DNA of 64,000 bases from Nitrospiraceae bacterium (GTDB taxonomy: Bacteria > Nitrospirota > Nitrospiria > Nitrospirales > Nitrospiraceae). The position numbers and the translations under genes are program-made. This document shows, piece by piece, positions 36,829 to 62,912 of this stretch (its first letter is position 1; each line of letters opens with the position of its first letter). Location: assembly GCA_050246315.1 (NCBI GenBank), contig JBFWWG010000002.1, forward strand, positions 268,811 through 332,810, in the 5' to 3' direction. Below the pieces are notes generated by a model. That model did no database searches and was not told the origin of the DNA. It worked only from the letters and a program-made list of their open reading frames with translations.

Positions 36829-37180
36829 TTGCGTTCTCCGGTCGATCCTACCTCACAATGAGGAGTTCCCCTACCATCTCTCATTTTCAGACAGACTCAC
36901 CTCCCTTCGCTCCTTGCTCTTCACTCATCCTTGCTCTCCATTCAATGGATCTACTGTCACAGTTTTGACGACAGTCATTGAAGGGCGATCACTACATTTC
37001 TACAGCCGATGTACAAACGTATCGATTGAGGTCGAATCGAAATACTCCAATAACTCAGTGAGTCCTGTGAAAATTGGAACGCACATCGATTGAATATGAC
37101 TGGCATGTGAATTGCTGTCCATCACGCAGCACTTACCGCATATCACTCACAGCCAGTTTCACTCTACAAGAGGTCCCATC

Positions 37181-38920
37181 ATGGACTGGGGTCGATTTGA
37201 CCGGACAAACATGCTGCTTGAGGCTCAATGGTCCTATGAAGGTTGGCGCCGGTTGCTCCTACTCTTCTCGGTAGCATTCGGAACTCAGATCTTGGTCATA
37301 CCAGAGAGCTTCGCCTTATCGGTGAATCCCTCCCAAATGACATTTACGGCCACAGCGGGAGCCGGTGCGCCGGCCAATCAGACTCTCTCGCTGACCAATT
37401 CGAGTTCCGGCGAATATCAATGTGAATCAAGCGCATCATGGTTGACGCTCTCTACCAATTACGGGACGTTCTCGGGGGGATCCGCTCAAATATCTGTATC
37501 TGCCAACACGTCTGGGATGTCGGCGGGGATTTACACCGCGACGGTTCAATTTTGGATCTGGGGCGGAAGCGATCCGAACACCTATACGCCCGCCGTGACC
37601 GTCACGCTGAACCTGACGACAGGCGGCGGAGGTGGCGGTGGCGGCGGAGGTGGCGGTGGAACCGGCCCCAGCATTGCGCTCTCACCCACGTCCCTGTCTT
37701 TCGCTGGAACAGCCGGGGGAAGCAATCCGGCGGCTAAGACGGTTTCTCTCACCAATCCAGGAGGCAGCACGTTATCAACGACCTGGGCCTCAAGCGATGG
37801 ATGGCTCGTGCTGAACAGATCGACACATTCGACCAGAACGGAAACCGATACGGTGACGGTGACTGCGAACATATCTGGCCTAGGAGCTGGTACGTATCAG
37901 TCAATCATTACGATATCCGGAAATGCCTCGAACAGCCCACAGCAGATCCCCGTGACGCTCACGGTGGCTCAGCCAGGAGGAGGAGGCGGCGGCTCCAACC
38001 CGGTCTTGAGCGTCAATCCCTCAAGCCTGACCATCAATGTGCCGGCCTGGTCATTGGACCAGGTGACTCAGTACATCAATATCTCGAACACAGGCGGCGG
38101 GACGCTCAATTGGAGTGTCTCTGATCCGGTGGATTGGCTATGGAAAGATGTCGACAGTGGGAACGGCAACTATGCGCTTAAGATCGACGTGTTCCCGGAC
38201 TATTTCGGCGGCGCGCCCGGCACCTATACTACGTCCGTGACCGTCACCTCGTCCGGCGCTTCCGGTTCACCCAAAACCATCCCGGTGACGCTGAATATCG
38301 GATCAACCTCTGGAGGAGGTGGCGGCGGAGGTGGTGGAGGTGGTGGCTCCAGCCCGGTTTTGAGCGTCAGTCCCTCAAGCCTGACGTTCAATCTCCCGGA
38401 ATGGTCCTGGGACTCGGCCACGCAATACATCAACATCTCGAATACCGGCGGCGGGACCCTCACCTGGACGGCGAGCGATCCGGTCGATTGGTTGATTAAG
38501 AGCGTCGATGGCGGGACCGGAAATGGGAGCCTGCAGATCGATGTGTACCCCGGCTATTTCGAGGGAGTGCCAGGCACCTACAAGACCAACGTCACGATCA
38601 GCGCCTCCGGCGCCTCCGGTTCGCCGAAAACGATTCCGGTCACCATGAATATCGGAGGAGGTTCGGGAGGTGGTGGAGGAGGCGGGTCTGCCAGCGTGAC
38701 CTTGACCTGGAATGCCAACGGTGAATCCGACCTGCAAGGGTACAGAGTTTACTATGGAACCTCTTCGAGGAACTACAGCACGAACACGGACGTCGGGAAG
38801 GTGACGTCCTACACCGTCAGCGGGCTCTCCACCGGAGCCACCTACTACTTCGCGATTACGGCGTTGGATACGTCCGGCAACGAAAGCAGCTTTTCGAGCG
38901 AAGTCTCGGCCTCCCGCTAG
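37181..38920 (+). CDS. exported protein with four BACON-like Ig domains, poly-Gly linkers and C-terminal FN3
   Basis: Repeated SV.PSSL.F...WL...GTY...IPVT; FN3 LTW...GYRVYYG...YYFAITALD.SGNES; start codon uncertain. Confidence 0.85.
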   Translation: MDWGRFDRTNMLLEAQWSYEGWRRLLLLFSVAFGTQILVIPESFALSVNPSQMTFTATAGAGAPANQTLSLTNSSSGEYQCESSASWLTLSTNYGTFSGGSAQISVSANTSGMSAGIYTATVQFWIWGGSDPNTYTPAVTVTLNLTTGGGGGGGGGGGGGTGPSIALSPTSLSFAGTAGGSNPAAKTVSLTNPGGSTLSTTWASSDGWLVLNRSTHSTRTETDTVTVTANISGLGAGTYQSIITISGNASNSPQQIPVTLTVAQPGGGGGGSNPVLSVNPSSLTINVPAWSLDQVTQYINISNTGGGTLNWSVSDPVDWLWKDVDSGNGNYALKIDVFPDYFGGAPGTYTTSVTVTSSGASGSPKTIPVTLNIGSTSGGGGGGGGGGGGSSPVLSVSPSSLTFNLPEWSWDSATQYINISNTGGGTLTWTASDPVDWLIKSVDGGTGNGSLQIDVYPGYFEGVPGTYKTNVTISASGASGSPKTIPVTMNIGGGSGGGGGGGSASVTLTWNANGESDLQGYRVYYGTSSRNYSTNTDVGKVTSYTVSGLSTGATYYFAITALDTSGNESSFSSEVSASR

Positions 38921-44612: not shown

Positions 44613-45536
44613 CTATGGGCCTGCAAAGGGACCGCGAGTAGTGGGAATGGAGGTATCGAGTGGTGGCCCCAAAAGCGTCTGGTTGAATCCCAGATACAAT
44701 CGATACAGCCCATCTCCCCGTTTCCATTCCTGAGCTGAGCTATCGACAATGAGATAGTAGGTCCCCGGGGCCAACTCAGAGGGAAACAATGCTGTGACCC
44801 CCGCTCGCAGGACATATCCTTGCTGCAATTGAGTTCCATCCGAGGAGAGAAGATAGAGGGCCGGCTGCCAGGCAGATTGGACCAAGCCGACGACTCCCGA
44901 CCACATGGCCCGGTTGGCGGCCACAGCCGCTTCAATTCTGCTACATTCCGTGAGGACGAAGCGGTACATTTGATCCGGGCCGTTCAACCCGTCGGGATGG
45001 CCGTAGTTATCTTTCGCCTGCGCCAATGTCGCCGTTAGCACGACACTGTCCGTGATCCGGTCCGCATGGGCCAGGTCTTCCCCACCGCGGAATTCTGCAC
45101 CAGTCAAGGGTCTGGTCCCACACGTCGCCCAGGTCACGGGACGATCATGTCGGCTAGCAACTGAAGAACAGCCTCCCTCATCGGGACAAGCCATGGTGTC
45201 ACGGTTAGACAGTGGCTGGCGTTCGTATCCGTACCGTGGAGAAACTGGAGCCACGACGTGAGGCAAGGAAGGACGGTCATGGTCCCGCTCTTCTTCTATC
45301 TCCAGCACATTTGCTCCCGCCAGCAGGCAATTCACGAGGGCCGTGAACTCCGCTTCCCCTTCTAAACGGTTCCATGAGCACTGTGCAGATCCCCCCACAC
45401 AGGGGGTCATCGATCGATATTCGACAACATGCACAAACGGCTTGGGCCTGATCTCGCAACCCAGGATCGCGAGACAGCCAAGAAGTACTCCGGCCGAGAC
45501 CACTTTTGAACTGAACACGTTCAGCCCCTTGATCAC
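44613..45536 (-). CDS. Cys-rich lipoprotein with PPC-like C-terminal domain
   Basis: Lipobox ILGC; GPD..Y.F...PGTYYLIVDS...G.Y.L pattern; GTGA overlap with the upstream gene. Confidence 0.65.
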   Translation of the reverse strand: MIKGLNVFSSKVVSAGVLLGCLAILGCEIRPKPFVHVVEYRSMTPCVGGSAQCSWNRLEGEAEFTALVNCLLAGANVLEIEEERDHDRPSLPHVVAPVSPRYGYERQPLSNRDTMACPDEGGCSSVASRHDRPVTWATCGTRPLTGAEFRGGEDLAHADRITDSVVLTATLAQAKDNYGHPDGLNGPDQMYRFVLTECSRIEAAVAANRAMWSGVVGLVQSAWQPALYLLSSDGTQLQQGYVLRAGVTALFPSELAPGTYYLIVDSSAQEWKRGDGLYRLYLGFNQTLLGPPLDTSIPTTRGPFAGP

Positions 45537-47293
45537 GTTTCCCGATCAAGCCCGACGAGATGAAACCGCCCGGTCATAGGATCGAATCCGAGATAGACGA
45601 TCATCCGCGGACTCCATTGCTTCCCACCGTCGTAACTGGTCTGGATATGCAGGGTTGTGACAGGAACATCTGTCGAGAGTTCCTGTTGGTCTGCCATGTG
45701 AATTGTTCTAGGAATCGTGATCCTCGACTGTGTCACGATTTGTTGTGGAATCACTTCCGAATCGACACCGAATCTCACACGCCGCTTCAGGGTATAGCGA
45801 TAGGTTGCAGTAGGGCCCGGGGCATAACCCCGTGACAGCGCCAGGTTCTCGAAGATCAGGAATGGCTCTCGCCCGTCAAGTTCCACCAGCCGAAAATGAT
45901 CGAGGGGATTGACGACCTTGAAATAATAGCGACCGATTTTGTCGCGACGCGCTTTCAAGACCGCCGCCACGTACCGTCCTGCTCGCGGATCAGTGAACCC
46001 GCCGGTATGCACGATCGTGTCGATGTCATCATCGGTGAACGAAGTGACGATCTTGGCTCCCCAATAGGCGTCTCGCAGCGTGGTCCGGAGAAATGCCGGA
46101 TTCGGGTACGTTGGGCGCCATCGCTCCGGATCGAAATAGTCCGCCTCAAAGTACCCGACGGCCGGGAACTCCATGCGGAGAGGAACCTCCCATGGCTTCA
46201 CGTAAAACCCTGCCTCTATCATCGACCGGCCGACGGTTCCGAAGTCGAGAAAATACTCGTTCCCAAATCGAGAGAGTTGCGGATCAGCATTATCCGCTCC
46301 CAACGTCGAGGAGAAGTCGATGAGGTAATGCGACAGATACTTCGCTTCGGGATCGTACATGTCGAGCGCGTTGGCCGCCTTGGTGTCGGTATGGTTCAGA
46401 AAGGCCGCTAGAATCCGAAGTCCTCGCAATTCACGCCTGTTTTCATGACGGATGCGGTCGTTCGGATCGTCAGACCGTTGCCCGACATAGAGAAACGGAC
46501 CTTTGGGAATTCCAGGCAGGAACTTGCTGGCCATTGCCCGAATCGTTCCATCGGGCCGATGGGGGACGCGCTCTAAAATGGCTTTGATGTCATCATCGGT
46601 CATGGGCCGTGGGACATGGTATCGGCCACGGAACTTGGCCGTTGGGCCGACCACGATTCGGCCGGGATCGACGTCGACAAGATAATGTTCCGGGACATGG
46701 TATCCGGCCGCGTACAGGAAGCGCGAAGAGATCATTTCCGATGCGGTCGTCATTTCAGGGTGTAACGGCGGGTCGAATTTCAAGAGATACACGTCGTTCT
46801 TTTCATCGCGAATGACGAAGCCCGGCGTGGAGCCCAGACTTTGTTTCGCGCTGATCGCCGTCCAGACCCCTCTGGGACTCGGCCCTTGCCCGATCCCTGC
46901 GCCACGAGACAAGTCGGCTTGCGAGAGTCGTGCAACGGCGTGGCGGTTTGTGAACCAGGTGGAATCGGGAACCTCGTCGAAGGTGTTCACGTTCTGAGCC
47001 TCCACCGGACCGGCGAGGCCGACCCATGTTCCAACCGTTCGGACAGAACGACCGAGGTTGAAGAGTTGCCCAATGCGGTAGAAGATCATCTTGTCGGTGC
47101 CATCCCAGAGAGCCCACTGGCCATCCATTTCCTCCTGCGGTTCAGGAATAGGTCTTCGGTCGTCTACTCGCTGGAAGTGAGGCCGTTCCAGAGCCGGCGC
47201 ACTGTAGCAACCAGCCGTCGCCGTGAGGAGAAGCGCCCAAACTGTCAGCACGCGTGAGTGTCGGATTACCCTGGCGGATGGTCGTATGTTCAT
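45533..47293 (-). CDS. putative lipoprotein kinase (HipA/PI4K-like atypical kinase fold)
   Basis: Lipobox TAGC29; LGSTPG loop, K172, E186, H301TDTKAAN308, ID326F. Confidence 0.7.
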   Translation of the reverse strand: MNIRPSARVIRHSRVLTVWALLLTATAGCYSAPALERPHFQRVDDRRPIPEPQEEMDGQWALWDGTDKMIFYRIGQLFNLGRSVRTVGTWVGLAGPVEAQNVNTFDEVPDSTWFTNRHAVARLSQADLSRGAGIGQGPSPRGVWTAISAKQSLGSTPGFVIRDEKNDVYLLKFDPPLHPEMTTASEMISSRFLYAAGYHVPEHYLVDVDPGRIVVGPTAKFRGRYHVPRPMTDDDIKAILERVPHRPDGTIRAMASKFLPGIPKGPFLYVGQRSDDPNDRIRHENRRELRGLRILAAFLNHTDTKAANALDMYDPEAKYLSHYLIDFSSTLGADNADPQLSRFGNEYFLDFGTVGRSMIEAGFYVKPWEVPLRMEFPAVGYFEADYFDPERWRPTYPNPAFLRTTLRDAYWGAKIVTSFTDDDIDTIVHTGGFTDPRAGRYVAAVLKARRDKIGRYYFKVVNPLDHFRLVELDGREPFLIFENLALSRGYAPGPTATYRYTLKRRVRFGVDSEVIPQQIVTQSRITIPRTIHMADQQELSTDVPVTTLHIQTSYDGGKQWSPRMIVYLGFDPMTGRFHLVGLDRET

Positions 47294-47305
47294 GGGAGCA
47301 CCTGA

Positions 47306-48682
47306 TCAAAAACCCAGCGTGGCGGCTCGTCGCCTGATGAAATCCAGGTCTCCTCGGATCAGGGTCAAGACCCCGTCCTCGCTCCCCGCCACTTGAATCC
47401 GGAAGCTGAACTTCCTGTTGGAGACGAAACGCAATCCTGCCCCGGCGGAGTACCGGAATTGTTTCAGCCCGATGTCTCTGTAGTTGTTGAACACCTGCCC
47501 TTCGTCGAGAAAGATATCCCCTTCGACATCCTGCCAGACGGGAAAGCGCCATTCGGCGTTGAAGAGCAGGGCGCCTTCATCTTGCCACCGCCCGCGGTCG
47601 AAACCGCGCAAACCGTTGTTGAGATCCAAAAGGTTCAGCTCGTAAAAGGGGATCGACCCGTTACCCAGGCTGTCCTGTTTCGCGAGATACCCCCTCAGCA
47701 GAAGCACTCGGTTGCCATGGAAGACAGGGATGTACCGTTGGACCTCCAAGCGGTAGCCGATGTAGCGAAACTGATCGCGATTCACCTGGTCGGTGTAGGT
47801 GAACGATCCCTCTGCGAACCAGCCCATGGTCGGCCGGAAGGGATTGTCCCGTGAGTCGTACCGAAGGCTGGGTTCGATGGCTAACGCTGTCATGGAACTG
47901 TTGTTGCCTGCGACGGTCGCCGGCGTGGCCGGCAGCCGGCTGGATGGTTTGGCATCGGCGATCAACAGCCGTCCGGTGAGCGCTGCACTGAGATCACCAG
48001 CCAGCCGACGACCCAGTGTGGTATCCCAGGCCAGTTCTTTCAGCTCGAAATTCGTCTCGTCCTGCTCCCGCGCCCGATTCCCACCGGGATAGAAATGGCT
48101 TTCGTCGAAATTCAACCAGAACGTGTTCGTCTCAAAAGACCAGGCAGAACCGAGGAGGGACGGGTCGCGAAAAGATAGCTCGCCGACTTGATTGTCCCGG
48201 GTTGCCACGAGGTAGGACAGCCGCGCTTCTTTGCCCTTTCTGAAGACATTGTTGTTGAACGCGGTGAACCCAATCCCGCTGCTGAGGGTGCCGCCTACCG
48301 ATAATCTTGGATAGATTCCTGCAGTGCGCTCGTCGTTCAGAAAGACATCCAAGGCGCGATTGAGCAGATCGTGCCGCTCGTACACGATCGCGAGCTGCTT
48401 GAATGGATACGTGAACCCCGCCCAGGCATATTCCGGCACCGCCAGCAGCCGGTTGGCCCATGTATTTTCTTCATCCTCCGGCGGCTGGCTCGTGGGCCGG
48501 TCGTCGCGCGGTGGCGTGGGTTCTTCCCGCGGCGATTCGGCGGACGCGGCTTGGCGAGGGGCTTCCGGTGGTGGGACGACAGGGGGCTGCTTGGTCGCAC
48601 AGGCCATCTGGAGAAGCAGCGTGAGGACCAATAGAGTCCAAACGAGCAGGCAGGTGACGGAGCGTGTCGCACCAACCGTCAT
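47306..48682 (-). CDS. Omp85 (BamA/TamA-family) barrel protein, predicted lipoprotein
   Basis: YDSRDN, LRGF loop-6 motif, AEWRFP, GAGLRF; QMAC lipobox-like site. Confidence 0.85.
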   Translation of the reverse strand: MTVGATRSVTCLLVWTLLVLTLLLQMACATKQPPVVPPPEAPRQAASAESPREEPTPPRDDRPTSQPPEDEENTWANRLLAVPEYAWAGFTYPFKQLAIVYERHDLLNRALDVFLNDERTAGIYPRLSVGGTLSSGIGFTAFNNNVFRKGKEARLSYLVATRDNQVGELSFRDPSLLGSAWSFETNTFWLNFDESHFYPGGNRAREQDETNFELKELAWDTTLGRRLAGDLSAALTGRLLIADAKPSSRLPATPATVAGNNSSMTALAIEPSLRYDSRDNPFRPTMGWFAEGSFTYTDQVNRDQFRYIGYRLEVQRYIPVFHGNRVLLLRGYLAKQDSLGNGSIPFYELNLLDLNNGLRGFDRGRWQDEGALLFNAEWRFPVWQDVEGDIFLDEGQVFNNYRDIGLKQFRYSAGAGLRFVSNRKFSFRIQVAGSEDGVLTLIRGDLDFIRRRAATLGF

Positions 48683-48737
48683 GGCGTTGGACTTTCCTTC
48701 TACTCGCCGGCTTCCCTAAGAACTGCCGGGCTTCGAC

Positions 48738-49733
48738 TCAAAACCGATATTCGACGGTGAGGCCCAATCCTCCCCGTGCGTCCGGCACAAAAGGCAGGAC
48801 GCTCCAGCCGCGGAGTGCGTCCGGATGCTGATGCCGCCAGCTCAGGGCCTTCCCGATGGCGAAGCCGAGTGCCGCGCCGGCAAAGACATCGGAGGCGAAA
48901 TGCTCGTTCAGATAAATCCGCGACAGGGAAATTAACGCCGCGCCGGTGTAGACGAGGAAGGGGATCGGTTGCGGGTACGCGTCTGCGAAGACCGCGGCGA
49001 CGGCAAAGGTGCGGGCTGCATGGCTCGACGGGAACGACTTGTCGAATCCCTCGAACGGGTCGTACGATTGTGTGCCTTCCCCCGCATCTGGCCGGGCCCG
49101 GCCCACGGCAAACTTGGTCAGGCCGACCAAGGGTTCGGTGAACAGTTGCGCTTCTAGACTGACCAGGGCCGTCCGCGTGAGTTTGTTCCCCGCTTCGTGT
49201 TCTCGCAAGAGCCACCCCGCGCCGATCAAGCCGACATTTGCCATCAACACGTTCCTCCCGAATCCGATCTCCTCCAAGGTGTCCGCGATCTCGTCGTTCG
49301 TGTCGGTGCGATTCTCTTGAAAGGCCCGTTGAATCGATTTGTCTACAACCATCAATCCACCGATCGTGAGTCCGACTCCCCCGGCAACGAGGGCACTTTT
49401 CCGGTCCATTCTCAGAGGCGAAGTGATTACATATTCGATATCGTTCAGGACCTCCTGCCCAACTGAATGCAACGTTGCGAACGCTTCGCCCCCACTCACC
49501 CGTTCCGGTGTCGGTCGCGGCCCGATCAGTTCCTCCCCTCGATGCTCTCTCCTCGGACTCGAGTCACCCGCCTCCTGCCCTCCGGCAGTGGTACAGCACA
49601 GCCAAGAGAACGACACCACCAGCAGCAGGACGACAACTGCGCCTTGCCTTGCCATAGTTACCCATGCCATCCCCGAAATGAGACACACGCTCGTGGGTCT
49701 CGGGACCACGCGCCGATGCGAACACCGAATCAA
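48738..49733 (-). CDS. PAP2-family phosphatase
   Basis: K(x6)RP, PSSH, SR(x5)H(x3)D; start codon uncertain. Confidence 0.85.
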   Translation of the reverse strand: MIRCSHRRVVPRPTSVCLISGMAWVTMARQGAVVVLLLVVSFSWLCCTTAGGQEAGDSSPRREHRGEELIGPRPTPERVSGGEAFATLHSVGQEVLNDIEYVITSPLRMDRKSALVAGGVGLTIGGLMVVDKSIQRAFQENRTDTNDEIADTLEEIGFGRNVLMANVGLIGAGWLLREHEAGNKLTRTALVSLEAQLFTEPLVGLTKFAVGRARPDAGEGTQSYDPFEGFDKSFPSSHAARTFAVAAVFADAYPQPIPFLVYTGAALISLSRIYLNEHFASDVFAGAALGFAIGKALSWRHQHPDALRGWSVLPFVPDARGGLGLTVEYRF

Positions 49734-50491: not shown

Positions 50492-51043
50492 TTACATGAC
50501 CTTCTGATTCATCGACGACGCATGACCTTCGTGCACCTTGAAGGTTTGGAGCGCCGACGTGAGGAGCGCCTTCAGCTCGGCATTCTTCGCATTGGGAATG
50601 AAGGCGTTCTCGACCGTGTTGTTCACGAACTTGTGGTATTCGAGTTCGTTGGCCGCGTAGCGCTTGTCGAACGCCTCGCCGCGGAGCTGGGAAAGTTCGT
50701 TTCGAATCTCACCCGCCCGCTTCGACAACTGCTGACTCGTCGGGTTGTCCTGCGGCGTAATCTGGAGCTTGTTGACCAAGGCGAGAGCCTTGTTGTTCAC
50801 CGCCGTATGGTCACGGACCATCAGTTCCGCAAATTGCCGGACCTGCGGGTTTTCTGAAATCGCCAAGGCCAGGTGGGCGTAGCGAATGTCGATGTTGCCC
50901 GCCGTGTAGGCGATGTGGGCGATCTCCAGATCGTTCGGCGCCTTGTCCGGCTCTGCCGTCGCCGGGTTGCTGGCCGTCACACAGCCCACCAGCACGGCGC
51001 TCGCCAGAGTGAGACAGCCTAAAGACTTCGTGATCGTTCTCAT
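50492..51043 (-). CDS. DUF4142 (ferritin-like) lipoprotein
   Basis: Lipobox LVGC; VRQFAELMVRDH, FDxxY..NE..YH. Confidence 0.85.
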   Translation of the reverse strand: MRTITKSLGCLTLASAVLVGCVTASNPATAEPDKAPNDLEIAHIAYTAGNIDIRYAHLALAISENPQVRQFAELMVRDHTAVNNKALALVNKLQITPQDNPTSQQLSKRAGEIRNELSQLRGEAFDKRYAANELEYHKFVNNTVENAFIPNAKNAELKALLTSALQTFKVHEGHASSMNQKVM

Positions 51044-51180
51044 GATGCCACTCCTTTCTAGAATGAAGTGATTGAGTTGCTCTCGGCCGTCACCATCGAC
51101 GTCTGAGAGAGTCCTGGTGCCCGTCGGCACCTTTCATCAAGCAAGCATCATGGCTTGCCGTACCGTCCCTGGTAGGTGGA

Positions 51181-51582
51181 CTACGCCCATTGCGGAACGG
51201 CTTGCTGTTTGGAAGCGGCGACTGCCCCGATTAACATGGCTATCGCCAAACCAAGATGGAGCCAGCGGTCGGCTTCGTTGATGTGGACCAACCCCAACAG
51301 CATGTTGCCGCTCGTCATGAACCCGAGCAGCGCTATGCCGGAGTATGCGGCCGTGATGGCCTTCAACGCCGTGCGTTCCCTGCCTTCCATCGCCAGTCCG
51401 CCAAAGAGAAAGGCGGAACCGGTCAACAGATGCACGAGGTTGTGCAGGACGTTCGTCTCAAAGAAACCGTCCGCTGAGACAATCGGGTTCGGGAAGAACC
51501 CGAGGAATCCAACCAGAACGAAGATCGAACCGAATGCGAGACAGATGTTCTTGCTCGTCAGCATGACTATCACCTCCTTCAA
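51181..51582 (-). CDS. DUF4383 membrane protein
   Basis: HNLVHLLTG and AD.WLHL in a 4-TM protein. Confidence 0.85.
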   Translation of the reverse strand: MKEVIVMLTSKNICLAFGSIFVLVGFLGFFPNPIVSADGFFETNVLHNLVHLLTGSAFLFGGLAMEGRERTALKAITAAYSGIALLGFMTSGNMLLGLVHINEADRWLHLGLAIAMLIGAVAASKQQAVPQWA

Positions 51583-51589
51583 TTACTAT

Positions 51590-52216
51590 TCAGGATGCCG
51601 GCGACTTCTTTTGCAGCACCGGATAGCCGAATGAATAAATCCACTTGTCCGCATCGACCGCGTTGCGCGGAGCAAGCTCCCTTGCCGGCGTGTGACAGGG
51701 AATGCAATCCGTCTTGTAGTTTTTTGAGACCGTGTGCCTGGGATCGTCGGCATTGAAGAGCGACCAGGCCCACCCATCCCCCCACAGGCTGGATTCCTTG
51801 TAGCGACCCTGGGTGTCCCTGACCAACACGAACCATCCTTTGATGGTCGTCGCGTGGCCGACTGCCGGCCCGGTCGTCATCGCCATGGTCTTGGCGTCCA
51901 GGAGTTCTTTGACCAGCACCGCCCCATCAGGAAATCGCCTATACTGTTGGTAGTAGGCGATCGTCTCCGGCTGGGTGTAGACCACGTGATACTCGTGGAC
52001 GCCGGGCCCCATCTTTTCCAACTTCTCTCCCGTGTGCGCATGGGTCCACGTTCCGAGCGTGGGCCACTCGGTGTAGTTCTCGGGGACTCGAATCGCGCCG
52101 GTTGCCGGTTCGACATTTGGAGCAAAGGGCTTCTCGCCTTCGCCCATCATCGTCCCCATCAAAAAAGGGATGGCAACTAACGCCAACATCACCATGTAGA
52201 ACGTCTGCTTCTTCAT
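51590..52216 (-). CDS. cytochrome P460-family protein
   Basis: Signal peptide; FPDGAVLVKE; C-terminal CIPCH. Confidence 0.85.
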   Translation of the reverse strand: MKKQTFYMVMLALVAIPFLMGTMMGEGEKPFAPNVEPATGAIRVPENYTEWPTLGTWTHAHTGEKLEKMGPGVHEYHVVYTQPETIAYYQQYRRFPDGAVLVKELLDAKTMAMTTGPAVGHATTIKGWFVLVRDTQGRYKESSLWGDGWAWSLFNADDPRHTVSKNYKTDCIPCHTPARELAPRNAVDADKWIYSFGYPVLQKKSPAS

Positions 52217-52296
52217 ATCGCTCTTCCTTCCTTGTGCTGCTGAACCGGGGTAGGCGGCCCGCCGCTGCTCATGCGGCGGGCCTTTCCCAATGGTCC

Positions 52297-52758
52297 TCAC
52301 AGATCACCGGGAGCCTTGTCCTTAATGGCGGACCAGTTTTTCTCCGCCTTCTTGATGTTCCCTGGGATATCTTTTTCCCACTTGACTTGGATCCCCTTGT
52401 CCAGGTTCAAGTAGAGCGTGCCGTCGACGATCTTCCAGACCTCCGGATCGGCCACGAACTTCTTCGCCACCGACACGCCATAGGCGCAGTATCCGCCGTA
52501 CGCCGGCAGATACTTCGTCGGGTTCGCCACGAACAGCTTCTTGTGTTCTTCCGAGGTGAAGGCGTAGGTCACGCCGTCGTGATCGGCGACGTGGTAGCCT
52601 GACCCTCGCATTGCCTTCCCATCGGTAAAGTACGCCACGACGTCATAGCCGGCGGCGCCCGGCGTGCTATGGGTGTAATCCAGCGCGAATGCCGGCGCCG
52701 CGACGGCCGTGGCCACCAGTGCCACGATGCCCAGGAAGCATTGCTTCATCGAGTTCAT
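52297..52758 (-). CDS. exported YHS-domain protein
   Basis: GYDVVAYF, P.KYLPAYGGYCAYG, IVDG.LYLN. Confidence 0.9.
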   Translation of the reverse strand: MNSMKQCFLGIVALVATAVAAPAFALDYTHSTPGAAGYDVVAYFTDGKAMRGSGYHVADHDGVTYAFTSEEHKKLFVANPTKYLPAYGGYCAYGVSVAKKFVADPEVWKIVDGTLYLNLDKGIQVKWEKDIPGNIKKAEKNWSAIKDKAPGDL

Positions 52759-52801
52759 GAGAAACCTCCTTGTGAGATGAAAGGGTTAACGCACTGACAC
52801 A

Positions 52802-53353
52802 CTACGCGGCGCGGGTTTCCCCGACGTCCACGACCGGGAAATCCACCTCTGTCCCGGCGACGAGGTTGAAGTAGTTGGTGAACACATTGATGGCGATGTT
52901 CGCAATCACCTCCACGATCTCTCCGTCCGACAATCCTGCAGCGCGGACCTGTGCCAGATCCGCATCTGACACCTCGCCACGAGACGTCAGGACGCGGTTG
53001 ACGAATGTCAGGATCGCTTGTGTCTGTGGGTTTTCGGACTTCCCGTTGAGATTGCGGCCCAATTCCCGCGTATCGAGACCGGCTTGTTTCGCGATGGCCG
53101 TATGGGCCGACGCGCAGTATCCGCACCGGTTGGCCCCGGCGACGGCAAGCGCAATTTGTTCCCGCAACGCCGTGGACAGCTTCCCGGACCCAAGCGACTT
53201 GGTGAAGTTGAGATAGCCCCCGAGCACAGACGGGGCATGGGCCAAAGTCTTGAAGAGGTTGGGCACGACTCCGAATTGGCGCTGAATCGCGGTCAGCAAT
53301 TCAGCAGCCTTCGGGTGTGCGGCCCCTGGCTCCAGCGGTTGAATGCGTGGCAT
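52802..53353 (-). CDS. AhpD/CMD-family peroxidase-related protein
   Basis: VPNLF, CGYCASAH, TNYFN...VDFP. Confidence 0.9.
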   Translation of the reverse strand: MPRIQPLEPGAAHPKAAELLTAIQRQFGVVPNLFKTLAHAPSVLGGYLNFTKSLGSGKLSTALREQIALAVAGANRCGYCASAHTAIAKQAGLDTRELGRNLNGKSENPQTQAILTFVNRVLTSRGEVSDADLAQVRAAGLSDGEIVEVIANIAINVFTNYFNLVAGTEVDFPVVDVGETRAA

Positions 53354-53458
53354 GTCGGTCCTCCTGCGAGTTAAAGGTTATGAGGTCATCGCGTCCGCCG
53401 ATCGATGGATGAGTGCTCCCACCGAATCCTCGAACGGCCCGCTCGTGGTCACCACTAT

Positions 53459-53596
53459 GTCAAGCCGCGTGCCACGTTGACGTTTGATACGAACGCGTTG
53501 AAATTACGATGAAGAGCCGCTGGTTGACCTCTTCATGAGCGATCACGACAATTCGTGACTAACAAGGAATCGTTGTGTCGCCACGAGTTCTCGTTT
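53459..53596 (-). promoter_or_regulatory. sigma54-type promoter 2 with three upstream boxes
   Basis: TGGCACGCGGCTTGAC (53459-74, minus strand); boxes at 53543-58, 53560-75, 53581-96. Confidence 0.7.
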
Positions 53597-53673
53597 AAGT
53601 TAGTCAGCGATTCGACCACGGCCTAGCGAAGCAAGTCTGTGGAGCCAGCGAACTCGCCGAGTTATTGGTGAAC

Positions 53674-54336
53674 ATGAACCGCGGAGATCCTTCTCGTTCT
53701 CTGGGGGAATTGTCTGAAGCTGAGTGGCGGCACCACTGTCCCTCGTTCTCTGTGGTGACGTTGGGCGACAAGGCGGTCATTCATCGCCAAGGAGACGTAA
53801 GCGATGTCGCGTTCATCATTGCGAGGGGGCGGGTGAAGCTCTCACGGCTGAATCGCGATGGAGATCAGTTCACGATGGCCGTGTTAACCGAGGGACAGAT
53901 GTTCGGCGCTCCACTGGCTGACCAATCGAGCACCACACTTACGGACACCGCAGAAGCCAAAGGTCGCACCGCCCTCTATCGGGTGCAGGTGAAGGAGCTG
54001 AGGGAACTATTGAAGTCTCAGCCGCTCCTGGCGTGGGACACCATTGAAAGCCTTTCCAAAGGACAGCGGCTCCTCGAACGGAAACTGGAGCTGATGATGT
54101 TCCATGACGCCCGATCGAGACTCGCGGAGACATTGCGCGACTTGGCCGGCACCCAGGGGGGGCATTGTCAGCATGGGTTCGAGCTGGACATCAAGCTGAC
54201 CCAGCAAGAACTCGCGGACCTCGTCGGAGCGACCAGGCCTGTCGTCAGTACGATCCTCAACGAATTCAAAGGTCGAGGTATCCTCGACTACCACCGCACG
54301 CTGATTTGCATTCAGAACCTCAGGGCTCTCGAATAG
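53674..54336 (+). CDS. Crp/Fnr-family transcriptional regulator
   Basis: cNMP-like beta-roll (GRVKL, G..FG) and LTQQELADLVGATR HTH. Confidence 0.9.
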   Translation: MNRGDPSRSLGELSEAEWRHHCPSFSVVTLGDKAVIHRQGDVSDVAFIIARGRVKLSRLNRDGDQFTMAVLTEGQMFGAPLADQSSTTLTDTAEAKGRTALYRVQVKELRELLKSQPLLAWDTIESLSKGQRLLERKLELMMFHDARSRLAETLRDLAGTQGGHCQHGFELDIKLTQQELADLVGATRPVVSTILNEFKGRGILDYHRTLICIQNLRALE

Positions 54337-54628
54337 TCTTCCGGTAACCATCCACATGCAGCGTGAGCGGACGTGACTAGGGGAACCACATGTGTAAGGA
54401 TCGGTCACGTACGGCGACTCATAATCTGTCCATTGTGGCGGATTAACTGGCAGTTCTGAATCGACACCGAAGCAAGAGGTGATGCGAGCTCTCATGCGGC
54501 CAAACGGTGAATCGATTTTGAGGGACTGTTATCCAGCGAACAGACAGATTTCCTGACTCGCGACATGCTCCCTTGCGAAAAGACGACAAAGCTTTGCCCA
54601 GGCTAACGGGTTCAGTGGGAATCGACTT

Positions 54629-55702
54629 ATGTCAACCGACCACGCAGCCTATGCAGAGACGCCCCGGGTCATGCCTTGGGACGAGCGAGAACGCCTTCTC
54701 CAATCGGAGCGGGGGTCCGAGGACAGTTTTGGTAACCTCGTCGGACGGAGTGCCGCCTTGCGTGCGATGGTCCAGCAAATTGACCTCGTCGCGCCCACGG
54801 ATGCCACCGTCCTCATTCTTGGCGAATCCGGAACCGGCAAGGAATTGGTGGCGCGCGAAATTCACGAACGAAGCCGCCGTCGAAGCCGGGCACTCGTCCG
54901 CGTGAATTGTGCCTCGATTCCGAGAGAACTTTACGAAAGCGAATTTTTCGGTCACGTGAAAGGGGCCTTCACCGGAGCCTTGAAAGATCGAGCCGGCCGA
55001 TTTGAGTCGGCCAATGGCGGCACACTGTTCCTCGACGAAGTCGGAGAGATCCCGTTGGAACTGCAGAGCAAGCTATTGCGTGTGCTGCAGGAAGGGGAAT
55101 ACGAACGGGTGGGAGAGGAAACAACCCGAACGGTCAATGTCCGGATCGTCGCTGCCACCAATCGAGACCTCACCAGGGATGTCCAGGCGGGACGATTCCG
55201 ACAAGACCTCTATTATCGGCTGAACGTCTATCCCATTCCTGTCGTGCCTCTCCGCCATCGGAAGGAAGACATTCCATTGTTGGCCGCGTACTTCGTCGAG
55301 CAGGCTGCCGAACGGCTCCATTGTCCCCGACCCGATATGGCGGAGGCTCAGGTAAGGCAGCTACAATTCTATGATTGGCCTGGGAATGTGCGAGAGCTCC
55401 AGAACGTGATTGAGCGAGCCGTCATTGCGTCACAAGGTCGTGCGCTTGAATTCGAATTGCCTCACGGAACCCATGAAGAACAGCCGGTGACGCGCCCGAT
55501 ACGCACTGCCGCACGATCAAGCGAAGGAGAGGTACTGACCGAAGCCGAGATGCGGCAATGGGAACGCGACAACTTGTTGGCCGCGTTGCATCTGAGTCAT
55601 TGGCGCATTTACGGACCGGGCGGCGCAGCAGAGCGATTGGGAGTCAAGCCCACAACCTTGGTGTCACGCATCAAGAAGCTGGGAATCAAGAAACCGGATT
55701 AA
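54629..55702 (+). CDS. sigma54-dependent activator (AAA+ plus Fis HTH) without a sensory domain
   Basis: [34 protein letters not shown] domain starts about 33 aa from the N-terminus. Confidence 0.92.
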
Positions 55703-56048: not shown

Positions 56049-56888
56049 TCACTCTCGAATCGCTCTCGTGCGTGCTTGCGCGTAGGCATTCCGAGCAGCG
56101 CTATAGAGATCCAGCGTGCTTTGTTCGAGACCGTCCAACAGTTCCAAGTTCCGAGACCGGTCATTGACCGTCTCACCCGCCCGCGAGACGATCTGAGGTG
56201 CGAGGGGCAGGAACAGTGTCAGAGGATCAAAGACGAGATCGCCTAGGAATCCGACTCCATCCCGAACGGTTGTTGGGGACAGCAACGGTAACACCAGATA
56301 GGGACCAGGCTCGACGCCGTAGACGGCAAGTGTCTGCCCAGCATCTTCACCCGCCGGTGAGCCGAGCCCGAACCATTGGTCAGCAACATCGAACAGGCCG
56401 GCCACTCCGATCGTGCTATTGATGGCGAACCGACCGAGTTCCCTTCCGGTCGCTTGCCATTTCCCCTGAAAGAGATTATTGAGCACCCGCGGCACGAAGC
56501 GAACGTTGTGAAATGCCCGCCCAATTGCGCGTTCAACCGGGTCTGGAACGATCCAGTCATAACCGGTCGCAAGTGGTTTGATGGCATATCGGTCGACTGA
56601 CTGATTGAACGCAAACATGGTCGAATTGAATCCTTCCCACGGATCGTCAATGGACTCCAGACTGTTCTCGCTGAACGGATCGGCGGCATGATTGCTATCG
56701 ACCTCGTGTGACGCGCAACACTCGTTCCCTTCAACCTCCATCTCGGCTGCCATGACGTCGAGATGGCAACTCCCCAGCGAGCCAGTCAGGAGTACGAGAA
56801 GGCAAGCGGCTCGAAGGCACACAGTGGTCAGATGGTGCGAAGGTACGACCACGTGGGTCGTAGAGTGAAGAGCGTTCACGTGCAGCAT
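56049..56888 (-). CDS. mlaA: VacJ/MlaA-family lipoprotein
   Basis: DPWEGFN..MF.FN, INSTIG..GLFD, ED.GQTL, GPYLVLP. Confidence 0.9.
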   Translation of the reverse strand: MLHVNALHSTTHVVVPSHHLTTVCLRAACLLVLLTGSLGSCHLDVMAAEMEVEGNECCASHEVDSNHAADPFSENSLESIDDPWEGFNSTMFAFNQSVDRYAIKPLATGYDWIVPDPVERAIGRAFHNVRFVPRVLNNLFQGKWQATGRELGRFAINSTIGVAGLFDVADQWFGLGSPAGEDAGQTLAVYGVEPGPYLVLPLLSPTTVRDGVGFLGDLVFDPLTLFLPLAPQIVSRAGETVNDRSRNLELLDGLEQSTLDLYSAARNAYAQARTRAIRE

Positions 56889-56917: not shown

Positions 56918-58291
56918 TTAGGCACTGGCGGCCAACACGTGATTGCTCTCCGACCTGCCGGCCGCTGAGACGTGCTTCGTCCGCGGTACCATAGTCGATT
57001 TGTTGACTGCCTCGCCGAAGCGCCGGCTCGCCTTGAGACTCAACACCACCATGACGACCATCGCCCCAATGGTGATCAGGCTCAAGTACTGTGCAGAAAG
57101 CCCGACGGATCCCAGCGCCAGAACCGCGAGGATACTGAGCCCCTTGGCGCCGCGTTGCACGAAGATGGAAATAAACGCGCGGGCCTTATATTTCTCGTCA
57201 GCCGATGTCGCGACATACAACGATTCTCGACCCGTCTGCTGGATCGAATAGTTCAGGCCGTTATCCAGAATGACCAAGAGGCTGACCGCGGCCAACGTCG
57301 GCATTGCGAGAAACCCCAGAGAGCCTGCCGTGATGGCCACAGGAAGGGCCAAGAGCGTCACGCGCGGGCCAAACCGCTTCATCATCATGCCGACCAGGAA
57401 CAACTGTGCGAAGACGGAGAGCAGATTCGAGTAGAGATAAATGTCCGTGAGGAACGCTTGCGTGGCTCGCACACCGGACATGCCCTGAGCCGTGAGCTTG
57501 AACTGGTAGTCCACCAGTTGTGAAGCAATTTCATAGCACCCCATGATGCCGGCTATGCTCACGAGGTACGGTGACCGCACGACTAACCTCGCTCCTTCGA
57601 TCATGTCAGGCATTCTCCCGAGGGCACGTTCCTGATCGTTCGGTACAGTGTGAAGGAGCGGGACCGGTTTAAAAATCGAGGATCTCAGAACCAGGGATTC
57701 TGTGACTGCAGTAGCCAGAAGGACGCCCCCCATGAGTCCGGCGGCAATCACGAGCAGTCCTTGAGTTCCCACGCTCGAAAGAAGAAGCTTCGCAAGGGCG
57801 CTTCCTGCCCAACCGCCGAGGACTCCGCCCGCTCCGATCGGACCGAAGAAGCGCTGCGCATCCGGTCCGCGAGCCAGATCCGTCAAGTAGGCCCAAAACG
57901 CCGTCGCCATGACTGTGACTTCGAGATCGCCCAGGAAATAGAGGGTCCAGATTGGTAGAGACCGTTCGTCATCCTGAAGGAGAAAGGCAAGCCCGAGGAA
58001 CGCCACAGCGAAGGCCCCGCTTAGCACTGAGAGGAAGCAGCGCCTCGACAACCTGTTGTACAGGCCTGTAAAGATGCCGACTGCCATCCCGGCGAGGAGC
58101 ACAGTGGCCAACTTGGCATAGAGCTCCACCTGAGCCCCATAATGCTCGACAAACAAACCACTCTTCAGGGGCTTGAGAATTTGAAAGACCGCAATTACGA
58201 GAAAGAAAAACGAGAAGAGGAGTCCCGCAATGTACAGATCGTGCGTTGGGCTGTGCTTCCATATCCGACGATTCATGATCGCTCCGTTCAT
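56918..58291 (-). CDS. Npt1/Npt2 (TLC, ATP/ADP translocase-like) nucleotide transporter
   Basis: About 12 TM; ILKPLK..LF, FW...D, RFFG, E.LY...EKYKARAFI..FV.R. Confidence 0.75.
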   Translation of the reverse strand: MNGAIMNRRIWKHSPTHDLYIAGLLFSFFFLVIAVFQILKPLKSGLFVEHYGAQVELYAKLATVLLAGMAVGIFTGLYNRLSRRCFLSVLSGAFAVAFLGLAFLLQDDERSLPIWTLYFLGDLEVTVMATAFWAYLTDLARGPDAQRFFGPIGAGGVLGGWAGSALAKLLLSSVGTQGLLVIAAGLMGGVLLATAVTESLVLRSSIFKPVPLLHTVPNDQERALGRMPDMIEGARLVVRSPYLVSIAGIMGCYEIASQLVDYQFKLTAQGMSGVRATQAFLTDIYLYSNLLSVFAQLFLVGMMMKRFGPRVTLLALPVAITAGSLGFLAMPTLAAVSLLVILDNGLNYSIQQTGRESLYVATSADEKYKARAFISIFVQRGAKGLSILAVLALGSVGLSAQYLSLITIGAMVVMVVLSLKASRRFGEAVNKSTMVPRTKHVSAAGRSESNHVLAASA

Positions 58292-60663: not shown

Positions 60664-61797
60664 TTACACAAGCCTGCTGAGCAGATGATAGGCGAGTGCG
60701 GAAAGAAGTCCGGAAGCAGGAAGCGTGACGACCCACGCGAGGACCATGTCACGCACCGTGGGCCATCGAACGGCGCTGACGCCTTTCAACAATCCAATGC
60801 CAATGATCGCCGAACTGCTGACGTGGGTCGTAGAAACCGGCAACCCCATCACTGCGGAGACCATCACCAGCGAGGAGGTCGTGAGATTCGCAGATAACCC
60901 TTCATCGTGATCCATGCGTGTGACTTTCTCGGCAAGGACTTGGGTAACACGGAGTCCTGCTAGGTAGCTGCCGACGCCCATCGCCACCGCCACGCCGATG
61001 AGTACCGCACCTTGAGAGGCCGCGCTGGGCCAAGTCGCAACAGCGCTTCCAAGCAGCAACATTGCCGCGATCTTGGGGGCATCGTTCGTTCCACGAGCCA
61101 ACGAGGCCAATCCGCTTGAGCCCCAATGGATACTGTCCAACCCAACAACGAGCCCGCTCAGTCCTGCCCGGTCGCACTGAACCGGCACGGCCATCACGGG
61201 TTGTCCCAGAGCTGCGGTCTGAAACAGAGTACGCGTGGCCCCCTGTGCATCGATCATGACCAACGCCTTGGCCGTCGGCATCACACAAAGACAGGCTCCT
61301 TCCCATCGAGCCGCGAGCGTGCGGACAAGAGGATGCACCAGGACAGAAACCGTCAAGGCCAGCACGGGACTGAGGATGAGCGGCAAGACAATCTTCTTTC
61401 CAATCCCTTCCCACAGGAGCCCCTCACTTCCAAACGCGATAAGGCCGACCCCGACGATGGCGCCGGTCAAAGCATGGGTCGTGGAGACAGGCAGGCCGCT
61501 CCAGGAGGCGACCAGCACCCAAAGGACCGCGCCGGTGAGCACGGCGGCAGCCAGTATGGGCGATGCGGGGGTGCCGGGTGCCAGCAGTCCTTGACTGAAG
61601 GTCTTCACCATTGCGGTGGCTACCAGTCCCGAGAGCCCAGCGCCGATCACGGTCCAGACTGTCCCCCAGAGGATCGCGGTCCGGTAGTCGGTGACCCCGC
61701 TGCCGACGAGCGTGGCGATGGCTTTGGACACGTCGTTCGCACCGTTGGCGAAGGCCAATAACAACACAAGGACGAACGCGAGAATCGATAGGTCCAT
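60664..61797 (-). CDS. PiT-family inorganic phosphate transporter
   Basis: NGANDV, GLPVSTTH twice, GTNDAPK. Confidence 0.9.
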   Translation of the reverse strand: MDLSILAFVLVLLLAFANGANDVSKAIATLVGSGVTDYRTAILWGTVWTVIGAGLSGLVATAMVKTFSQGLLAPGTPASPILAAAVLTGAVLWVLVASWSGLPVSTTHALTGAIVGVGLIAFGSEGLLWEGIGKKIVLPLILSPVLALTVSVLVHPLVRTLAARWEGACLCVMPTAKALVMIDAQGATRTLFQTAALGQPVMAVPVQCDRAGLSGLVVGLDSIHWGSSGLASLARGTNDAPKIAAMLLLGSAVATWPSAASQGAVLIGVAVAMGVGSYLAGLRVTQVLAEKVTRMDHDEGLSANLTTSSLVMVSAVMGLPVSTTHVSSSAIIGIGLLKGVSAVRWPTVRDMVLAWVVTLPASGLLSALAYHLLSRLV

Positions 61798-61807
61798 CGT
61801 ATTCGGC

Positions 61808-62863: not shown

Positions 62864-62912
62864 CTCTCTCTCCGTGAGCAAGCGTGAAGCACCTCAGAAA
62901 CCCACCATGGCG

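Follow-up and report, generated by a model that had tools for sequence, protein, structure and literature searches.

Kinase-fold enzymes that act outside the cytosol include Fam20C, Fam20B and the spore-coat protein CotH, and Fam20C and other lumenal kinases of the secretory pathway depend on an ATP/ADP exchanger of the endoplasmic reticulum and Golgi. The bacterial kinases HipA and HipT act as toxins in the cytoplasm and are paired with antitoxins. In the textbook view the periplasm contains no ATP, and the energy for envelope processes would come from the inner membrane or from pre-activated substrates. Here we describe a gene of a Nitrospiraceae bacterium whose product is predicted to combine a kinase fold with an export signal. 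The gene lies in a stretch of 64,000 nucleotides (nt) of contig JBFWWG010000002.1 (assembly GCA_050246315.1, positions 268,811 to 332,810), which we call the window and to which all coordinates below refer. Its product, here called the kinase-like protein, belongs to a large family whose genes mostly follow a gene for an Omp85 barrel of the outer membrane, and which is linked to genes of the TLC/NTT (ATP/ADP-transporter) family.

Two published gene sets come closest to these genomic partners. In Leptospira, lipoprotein genes were found in 2024 directly 3' of genes for 'noNterm' Omp85 proteins, and a role in transport was discussed and left unsettled (PMC11358297). The locus described here is similar in that a 16-strand Omp85 barrel without POTRA domains has a lipoprotein gene directly downstream, and unlike in its lipoprotein: those of Leptospira are described in the available text as Big/integrin-like or DUF1566 proteins, and the word 'kinase' is absent from the main text of that paper (PMC11358297). 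Major et al. (2017) described NTT and NTT-HEAT(-cNBD) genes of free-living bacteria and termed their function unknown; as far as the available text goes, an operon is mentioned for a cNBD gene only, and no kinase-like or Omp85 neighbour is given (PMC5381601).

The kinase-like gene is one open reading frame of 586 amino acids (45533..47293, minus strand), with AGGTG 5 nt 5' of its ATG, and it is single-copy in the genome of the window. An earlier note on this DNA, made from the letters and a list of open reading frames, had read an exported lipoprotein with a complete kinase motif set here. We found the reading frame and every motif where that note had placed them, in canonical kinase order: the Gly loop LGSTPG at residues 153-158, K172 within YLLKF, E186, AAGYHVPE at 195-202, the catalytic loop HTDTKAAN at 301-308 (D303, K305 and N308), and D326 within IDF (open reading frame listing and script). 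The residues for which it had asked about conservation proved to be well kept. K172, E186, D303, N308 and D326 are all invariant in an alignment of 30 relatives, and in a second alignment of 128 representatives, 31-60% identical to the query, they are kept in 117-122 sequences (K172, D303 and N308 in 119 each, D326 in 122, and position 186 in 117, as E in 97 and D in 20). H322 is kept in 126, and position 305 is basic in 104 (R in 62, K in 42). Judged by this conservation in both alignments, the motif set exceeds chance. The order D-x-[KR]-x-x-N followed by I-D-F resembles the DRHxxN and IDFG motifs of PI3/PI4 kinases.

Consistent with these motifs, structure prediction points to a kinase fold. 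AlphaFold2, run on the 30-sequence alignment, gave a model with a predicted local distance difference test (pLDDT) score of 83.7 and a predicted template modelling (pTM) score of 0.87. In this model the Gly loop sits between strands 144-149 and 158-162, K172 lies at the end of strand 168-173 and E186 inside helix 181-196; D303 to N308 come after helix 287-299 and are followed by strand 309-314, and D326 comes after strand 319-324. The model thus presents a predicted beta-3 Lys/alpha-C Glu pair, a D-x-[KR]-x-x-N loop and a metal-binding Asp. All eight Foldseek matches in the PDB at E <= 1e-3 were atypical kinases (Fam20A, CtkA and HipT). With VIA-align, the best match was CtkA (3akk_D; Z 14.4, root-mean-square deviation (rmsd) 4.2, 235 residues aligned, model residues 135..467), followed by Hydra Fam20 (Z 13.0), PI4KII-beta (12.7), CotH (12.5), HipT (11.2), MavQ (10.2) and HipA (9.9). 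A Foldseek-independent search over 48,161 chains placed atypical kinases at all of ranks 1-13, with Z 10.3-13.5 over model residues about 110-465; CtkA headed this list at Z 13.5, and actin-fragmin kinase was also within the top 13. Because unrelated models usually peak at a best Z of 7-8 with this tool, the kinase matches stand clear of background. On the strength of the model and its matches, we regard a kinase fold as nearly certain for the catalytic domain (residues about 135-467; 45893..46891, minus strand), which was delimited by structure match and conserved columns.

The comparison with HipA, PI4KII, CotH and FAM20C that the earlier note had proposed therefore came out in its favour, at Z 9.9-14.4 over 220-265 residues, and each of these kinases is like the kinase-like protein in some respects and unlike it in others. 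Among the HipA-type kinases (CtkA 3akj/3akk, HipT and HipA), CtkA is the best match (Z 13.5-14.4 over 227-235 residues), and the N-lobe Lys and Glu and the catalytic Asp-then-Asn loop are common to both sides. The likeness is one of fold rather than of sequence, as the kinase-like protein is only 10-14% identical to them and has no match to PF07804. Whereas HipA and HipT have antitoxin partners in the cytoplasm, the kinase-like protein has an export signal and an Omp85 partner, and unlike them it has a conserved N-terminal segment of 105 residues and a C-terminal domain resembling fibronectin III (FN3). The Fam20 proteins (Z 11.8-13.0) and CotH (Z 12.4-12.5) share with it the kinase fold of enzymes that act outside the cytosol, and Fam20 alignments reach into its N-terminal segment (model start at residue 33-39). 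They differ in having no counterpart to its lipid anchor and barrel partner; the compartment here would be the periplasm or the outer membrane of diderm bacteria, and the carrier family is TLC/NTT (PF03219). Still, the logic of a dedicated nucleotide carrier feeding a kinase outside the cytosol may be the same as in the secretory pathway. The lipid kinases PI4KII (Z 12.5-12.7) and Legionella MavQ (Z 10.2-10.3) are alike in fold, and a lipid substrate would fit both the neighbouring gene for a PAP2-family phosphatase and the outer-membrane setting; the kinase-like protein has no PF00454 match.

At the level of sequence the kinase-like protein stands apart. No Pfam or NCBIfam model matched it; the only Pfam row at E <= 1 was a chance GKAP match (0.086), and PF07804 (HipA_C), PF06702 (Fam20C), PF08757 (CotH) and PF00454 (PI3_PI4_kinase) gave nothing at that threshold. 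Searches of PDB sequences with phmmer and with the 30-sequence profile returned nothing relevant, and the ESM Atlas gave low-score (0.80) leads to Fam20C, HipA_2 and LepB_N clusters. A local hhalign comparison with ten HipA sequences was weak (E 1.6e-3, probability 16%); in it, the N-lobe Lys and Glu of HipA and its catalytic Asp fall on K172, E186 and D303, and AAGYHVPE falls on the corresponding HipA helix end, in line with the HipA-like character that had been suggested for that motif. The expectation that a standard pipeline would call the protein hypothetical was also borne out, since 'hypothetical protein' is the source name of all 120 listed homologues.

The family is nevertheless large. 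Among 8000 candidates scored there were 3652 matches, an exhaustive search gave 2770 clusters (50% identity) at E <= 1e-3 and 764 at E <= 1e-30, and of the 605 candidate stretches that a genome scan put forward, 571 were confirmed. We retained 79 related loci for context analysis, from Nitrospirota, Acidobacteriota, Latescibacterota, KSB1, Calditrichota, Zixibacteria, Ignavibacteria, Bacteroidota, Balneolaceae, Rhodothermales, Gemmatimonadota, Planctomycetota, Elusimicrobia, Marinimicrobia, Krumholzibacteriia and Eisenbacteria. Spread within Nitrospirota is patchy, since none of 60 other sampled genomes carries the family (1 of 61 with that of the window). Full-text searches, which covered open-access papers and bioRxiv, found no description of the family or of the gene module. 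Seven relatives (P0270-P0276) are longer, at 1051-1173 amino acids, with the kinase-like module at the N terminus followed by about 600 further residues in which neither a Pfam domain nor any resemblance to Omp85 or NTT was found. Fusions of the kinase-like protein to Omp85 or NTT were sought among longer forms, and none of these seven is one.

The N terminus of the kinase-like protein has a basic n-region and a hydrophobic stretch, VLTVWALLLTATAG, followed by C29. The signal peptide (residues 1-29; 47207..47293, minus strand) ends in LLLTATAG-C29, which fits a PROSITE-type lipobox pattern; Cys29 would thus be the first mature residue and is predicted to be lipidated, as the earlier note had proposed. 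Of 241 full-length relatives, 127 have a lipobox, 99 a hydrophobic N terminus without one, and 15 neither, most of the last looking like truncated gene calls. A Tyr follows Cys29. By the E. coli rule, this residue would route the lipoprotein to the outer membrane, a rule that may not hold in Nitrospira. Behind the signal peptide comes a conserved segment (residues 30-134; 46892..47206, minus strand) with predicted helices at 58-77 and 80-91 and a motif EVPxSxWFTNR around E107, S111, W113 and R117; S111 and W113 are each kept in 120 of 128 relatives and R117 in 127. One could suppose instead that the true start is M56, that the 'signal peptide' is untranslated and that the protein is a cytoplasmic HipA-like toxin kinase, and the ESM Atlas entry indeed begins at residue 56, so that at least one gene caller chose this start. 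However, residues 38-64, which extend upstream of M56, are conserved across phyla among the 30 relatives, with P38, D45, I49 and P52 invariant or nearly so, and the long reading frame with its signal peptide is for this reason the real form. The N-terminal lipobox or hydrophobic segment in 226 of 241 relatives, the lack of a HipB- or HipS-like partner beside a gene whose neighbours encode an outer-membrane barrel and exported proteins, and a PADLOC scan without a match also speak against a start at M56, which we consider highly improbable. Export of the kinase-like protein, by contrast, is very probable.

Directly upstream of the kinase-like gene lies a gene for an Omp85-family outer-membrane barrel without POTRA domains, that is, of the noNterm type (47306..48682, minus strand; 458 amino acids), and the gap from its stop to the start of the kinase-like gene is 12 nt. 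The protein matches PF01103 (2.2e-26, residues 145-431). In its AlphaFold model (pLDDT 85.9), a signal helix (residues 6-28) is followed by a linker that is Pro-rich and disordered (29-69), then by a few short helices (70-114) and by the 16 strands (121-446) of a predicted barrel without a POTRA arm. Foldseek matched this model to the barrels of BamA and TamA (1.8e-14 to 5e-13, with BamA 4k3c at 1.8e-14 and TamA 4c00). The pairing of the two genes is widely kept. In 69 of the 75 loci whose upstream gene could be assessed (four of the 79 have no upstream DNA), the gene immediately upstream, in the same orientation, encodes an Omp85 protein, and these loci come from over a dozen phyla. In the remaining six, Omp85 lies 1.1-1.6 kb upstream in two and downstream in one, and three have no match; of these three, L040 does have a reading frame upstream that weakly matches Omp85, and a transposase insertion lies upstream in L012. 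Clusters from an all-against-all BLAST comparison likewise placed an Omp85 gene in 74 of the 79 loci. Among 51 partner proteins, PF01103 was found in 48 and POTRA models at E <= 0.01 in none.

We also predicted the complex of the barrel (residues 72-458) with the lipoprotein (residues 30-586) alongside three controls. The interface score ipSAE was 0.60 (runs 0.59-0.62) and that of the best control 0.00, at least 96% of contacts agreed between runs, and partner pLDDT was at least 83. This result was graded as weak support: of 157 solved complexes 116 pass the ipSAE mark, as do 2 of 215 mismatched pairs, and values of 0.60 or lower occur in only 18 of the 157 solved complexes and in both of the mismatches that pass. 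Because complexes of BamA with lipoproteins have already been solved (6t1w and 7ojf), the score may partly reflect likeness to them. A variant arrangement occurs in a Latescibacterota locus (L016:7568-12692), where the kinase-like gene is followed by a gene for a patatin-Omp85 fusion (PlpD-like; PF01734 and PF01103) and then by a reading frame of 910 amino acids with a weak Omp85 match.

We found that the family is also linked to TLC/NTT transporters. In a hidden Markov model search, a TLC-like gene occurred within the 6-kb flanks of 33 of the 79 loci, and in 29 of them on the same strand. In many loci a gene for a TLC-family (PF03219) transporter of about 450 amino acids lies 3' of the kinase-like gene, often directly, and behind it there often comes a TLC-HEAT fusion of 900-1265 amino acids, sometimes with a cyclic-nucleotide-binding domain. 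One linked NTT gene, for example, is L017:7663-9024. The transporters linked to the module thus show both architectures known from free-living bacteria, single-domain and HEAT-fused (PMC5381601). Of 45 candidate TLC reading frames 44 were checked, and all 44 match PF03219 at E <= 1e-3; of the genomes with no transporter near the locus 35 were examined, and all 35 match PF03219 in another place. In a sample of 81 Acidobacteriota genomes, among them G078, which we chose as its centre, and G142, which is unpublished (each has both genes), the kinase-like family occurs in 16 and TLC in 28; TLC is present in 14 of the 16 genomes with the family, compared with 14 of the 65 that lack it. PF03219 had no match in any of 14 control genomes. 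The Nitrospirota sample is uninformative on co-occurrence, as only the genome of the window has the kinase-like family. On these counts we consider a functional link between the kinase-like family and the NTT probable.

In the genome of the window, the one open reading frame matching PF03219 is a gene for a TLC/NTT-type membrane protein of 457 amino acids (56918..58291, minus strand), whose match (6.4e-15, 55.4 bits against a cut-off of 21) places it in the family. It begins a pair with an MlaA lipoprotein gene (56049..56888, minus strand; PF04333 1.7e-64), which follows it after 29 nt. MlaA is part of the system that maintains lipid asymmetry in the outer membrane, and the pairing may be a hint to a role of the transporter in outer-membrane lipids. 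In a tree, the NTT of the window groups with 12 kinase-linked single-domain NTTs of other phyla on a long branch, with a Shimodaira-Hasegawa-like approximate likelihood ratio test (SH-aLRT) value of 98; this was a quick, unfinished tree that contained kinase-linked NTTs only and is thus no test of a special clade.

Hanks-type Ser/Thr kinase genes (PF00069) flank the transporter genes in all six loci checked. In L001:8713-12682, L034:2691-6613 and similar places, such a kinase, with an N-terminal extension of 230-300 amino acids, is encoded immediately 5' of a gene for a TLC-type protein of about 760 amino acids, and this pair lies on the strand opposite the module. The Hanks-type kinase could be a cytoplasmic regulator of the transporter.

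Exported phosphatases are a further recurrent neighbour. The apparent operon of the window has four genes, the first of which encodes a PAP2-family phosphatase (48738..49733, minus strand; 331 amino acids; PF01569 5.4e-21) that ends 55 nt before the Omp85 gene; its matches to undecaprenyl-diphosphatase and LpxE models of NCBIfam were weak and all below the cut-offs. A PAP2 gene adjoins the module in the Nitrospira-type loci L001-L006 and in L020, and genes for calcineurin-like metallophosphoesterases adjoin it in L013, L017, L020, L033, L036 and L042; the metallophosphoesterases of L020, L021 and L023 begin with lipoprotein signals. Locus L036 belongs to a cultured strain of Aliifodinibius salipaludis. 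The string ends in a gene for a putative lipoprotein of 307 amino acids (44613..45536, minus strand), whose GTG start overlaps the stop of the kinase-like gene by 4 nt. This protein is Cys-rich, has the N terminus VVSAGVLLGCLAILGC, and gave no match in Pfam, NCBIfam or PADLOC. Its gene was kept only in the Nitrospira-type loci L001-L006 when the 79 loci were compared, and it could be a lineage-specific substrate or regulator. The Nitrospira form of the module thus has PAP2 upstream, a lineage-specific lipoprotein downstream and the transporter 9.6 kb apart.

The arrangement that best accommodates these observations is the following. The kinase-like protein would be a Sec-exported, lipid-anchored enzyme of the protein-kinase-like superfamily, in its atypical HipA/CtkA-PI4KII-Fam20-CotH branch, with an intact ATP-binding and catalytic set (K172-E186, D303-x-K/R-x-x-N308 and D326). 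Its gene forms a conserved two-gene unit with that of the POTRA-less Omp85 protein; most likely the enzyme would dock on the barrel at the periplasmic face of the outer membrane and transfer phosphate from ATP to an envelope substrate, which may be a protein, a lipid or a glycan. As ATP is generally taken to be absent from the periplasm, its likely supplier is the NTT, an inner-membrane TLC/NTT exchanger that would send out ATP from the cytoplasm and take in ADP from the periplasm. Exported phosphatases, PAP2 here and metallophosphoesterase lipoproteins in other phyla, would reverse the reaction or process its product. We consider it fairly likely that the kinase-like protein is an active phosphotransferase, and we lean slightly towards the composite view that an exported enzyme with a kinase fold is catalytically active, works together with the Omp85 barrel and has a functional tie to an NTT. 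ATP export as the purpose of that tie falls a little short of an even chance. More tentative still is the full scheme of a dedicated extracytoplasmic phosphorylation system in many diderm phyla (Nitrospirota, Acidobacteriota, Latescibacterota, KSB1, Zixibacteria, Gemmatimonadota, Bacteroidota/Balneolota/Rhodothermota and others), in which an NTT exports ATP in exchange for ADP, the barrel-docked lipoprotein phosphorylates a substrate in the outer membrane or periplasm, and phosphatases, also exported, undo this.

Several observations weigh against this arrangement. A shared fold does not show function, since Fam20A, a top match, is a pseudokinase, and the kinase-like protein has no sequence-level membership in any curated kinase family in Pfam, NCBIfam or PDB sequences. 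About 7% of the 128 relatives lack K172, D303 or N308 in the alignment. The columns that do not vary in any of the 128 (G197, D276, D279, H283, R287, R290, G332, D408 and W411) differ from the classical kinase residues; most lie in residues 273-290 and 408-411 (about 46424..46477 and 46060..46072, minus strand), where a DDPND...H..RRELRG motif precedes the helix leading to the catalytic loop and an RDxxW motif lies in the C-lobe, and no nameable kinase feature accounts for either motif. This suggests a family-specific chemistry. For the barrel, the complex prediction lends only its weak support to docking. For the transporter, the NTT gene of the window is 9.6 kb from the operon start and in a separate operon with MlaA, two of the 16 family-bearing Acidobacteriota genomes (G122 and G138) show no TLC, half of the TLC-positive Acidobacteriota genomes sampled are without the kinase-like family, three genomes of the 61 in the Nitrospirota sample have TLC but not the family, and related genomes are not independent, so that the co-occurrence counts overstate significance. 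Finally, the characterised NTTs all import nucleotides (PMC5381601); export of ATP is a direction that we infer.

Two other explanations start from these same observations. In one, the kinase-like protein is not a phosphotransferase. It would either carry out another nucleotide-dependent reaction, in the way that SelO AMPylates and SidJ glutamylates, or lack catalysis and be a subunit that binds nucleotides or acts as a scaffold, for example by capturing external nucleotides at the outer membrane and handing them to an importing NTT. The family-specific set of invariant residues, the loss of activity that Fam20A shows to be possible in a kinase fold and the importing direction of the characterised NTTs (PMC5381601) all fit this view, and the metallophosphoesterase lipoproteins could be nucleotidases of such a scavenging route. 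However, D303, which a pure binder would not need, is kept (119 of 128) as often as the metal ligands N308 and D326, and a basic residue follows two positions after it in 104 of 128. In Ser/Thr kinases, the basic residue two after the catalytic Asp contacts the gamma-phosphate. We know of no scavenging system of this kind, and consider this explanation unlikely.

In the other explanation, the enzyme is a kinase displayed on the cell surface, where it would use environmental ATP on substrates outside the cell or on neighbouring cells, and the Omp85 barrel is its dedicated translocator, as in two-partner secretion or in the manner of a Slam-like lipoprotein flippase. The tight order of barrel gene and lipoprotein gene mirrors TpsB-TpsA, and an FN3-like C-terminal domain is typical of surface proteins. 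In the kinase-like protein this is a fibronectin-III/Ig-like beta-sandwich assigned by structure match (residues about 460-574; 45572..45916, minus strand), which resembles the FN3 domain of CD148 (7u08; Z 8.8, rmsd 2.5-2.6, 85 residues aligned) and many FN3 domains of cytokine receptors (Z about 8), values that are only moderately above background. CtkA, the closest match in structure, comes from H. pylori, carries the title 'proinflammatory kinase' and is secreted. The gene order also mirrors that of the noNterm Omp85 and lipoprotein genes of Leptospira, for which lipoprotein transport has been discussed (PMC11358297). Unlike TpsB transporters, which have POTRA domains, none of the 51 Omp85 partners matched a POTRA model and the barrel model from the window shows none. 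Display on the surface would also leave unexplained both the strong tie to an inner-membrane nucleotide transporter and the exported phosphatase lipoproteins, and environmental ATP is scarce. We therefore regard a surface kinase as quite improbable, and a periplasmic enzyme fed by an NTT remains the arrangement that we prefer.

A defence-system or toxin-antitoxin reading of the locus was set aside, as the PADLOC scan of five proteins gave no match. A scan for sigma-70 promoters found no site, and terminator-like sites were not enriched, so that these scans lend no evidence on operon boundaries. Two contigs from RNA libraries span neighbouring genes of the string, one (46176-49731) the PAP2, Omp85 and kinase-like genes and the other (44613-48201) the 307-amino-acid lipoprotein, kinase-like and Omp85 genes; at 90-95% identity both come from a relative rather than from this strain, and contigs from RNA libraries do not by themselves show transcription. 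Between the operon and the transporter (50492..55702) lie genes for DUF4142, cytochrome P460, YHS-domain and CMD-family proteins, a Crp-type regulator and a sigma-54 activator, and beyond the transporter (60664..62881) there are genes for a PHO4 phosphate transporter and a radical-SAM/DUF3641 protein; none of these has an evident tie to the module. A protein of 602 amino acids with BACON_2 and fibronectin-III domains (37112..38920, plus strand) is probably another surface or exported protein.

The genomic context of Omp85, NTT and exported phosphatases, which the earlier note had not seen, strengthens the case that it made and shifts the interesting question. A large, unannotated exported family keeps a full kinase active site together with a genomic tie to homologues of ATP/ADP exchangers, and the role of NTTs in free-living bacteria has been open since at least 2017 (PMC5381601). 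The pairing of kinase and NTT opens two questions to experiment, namely whether ATP is delivered to the periplasm and what POTRA-less Omp85 barrels do. If the proposed phosphorylation system is real, the periplasm of these bacteria would not be ATP-free, and the NTT genes of free-living bacteria would gain a first function. Should the idea of ATP export fail, the kinase-like family is still a new and widespread branch among kinases, one whose partner in the outer membrane is obligate.

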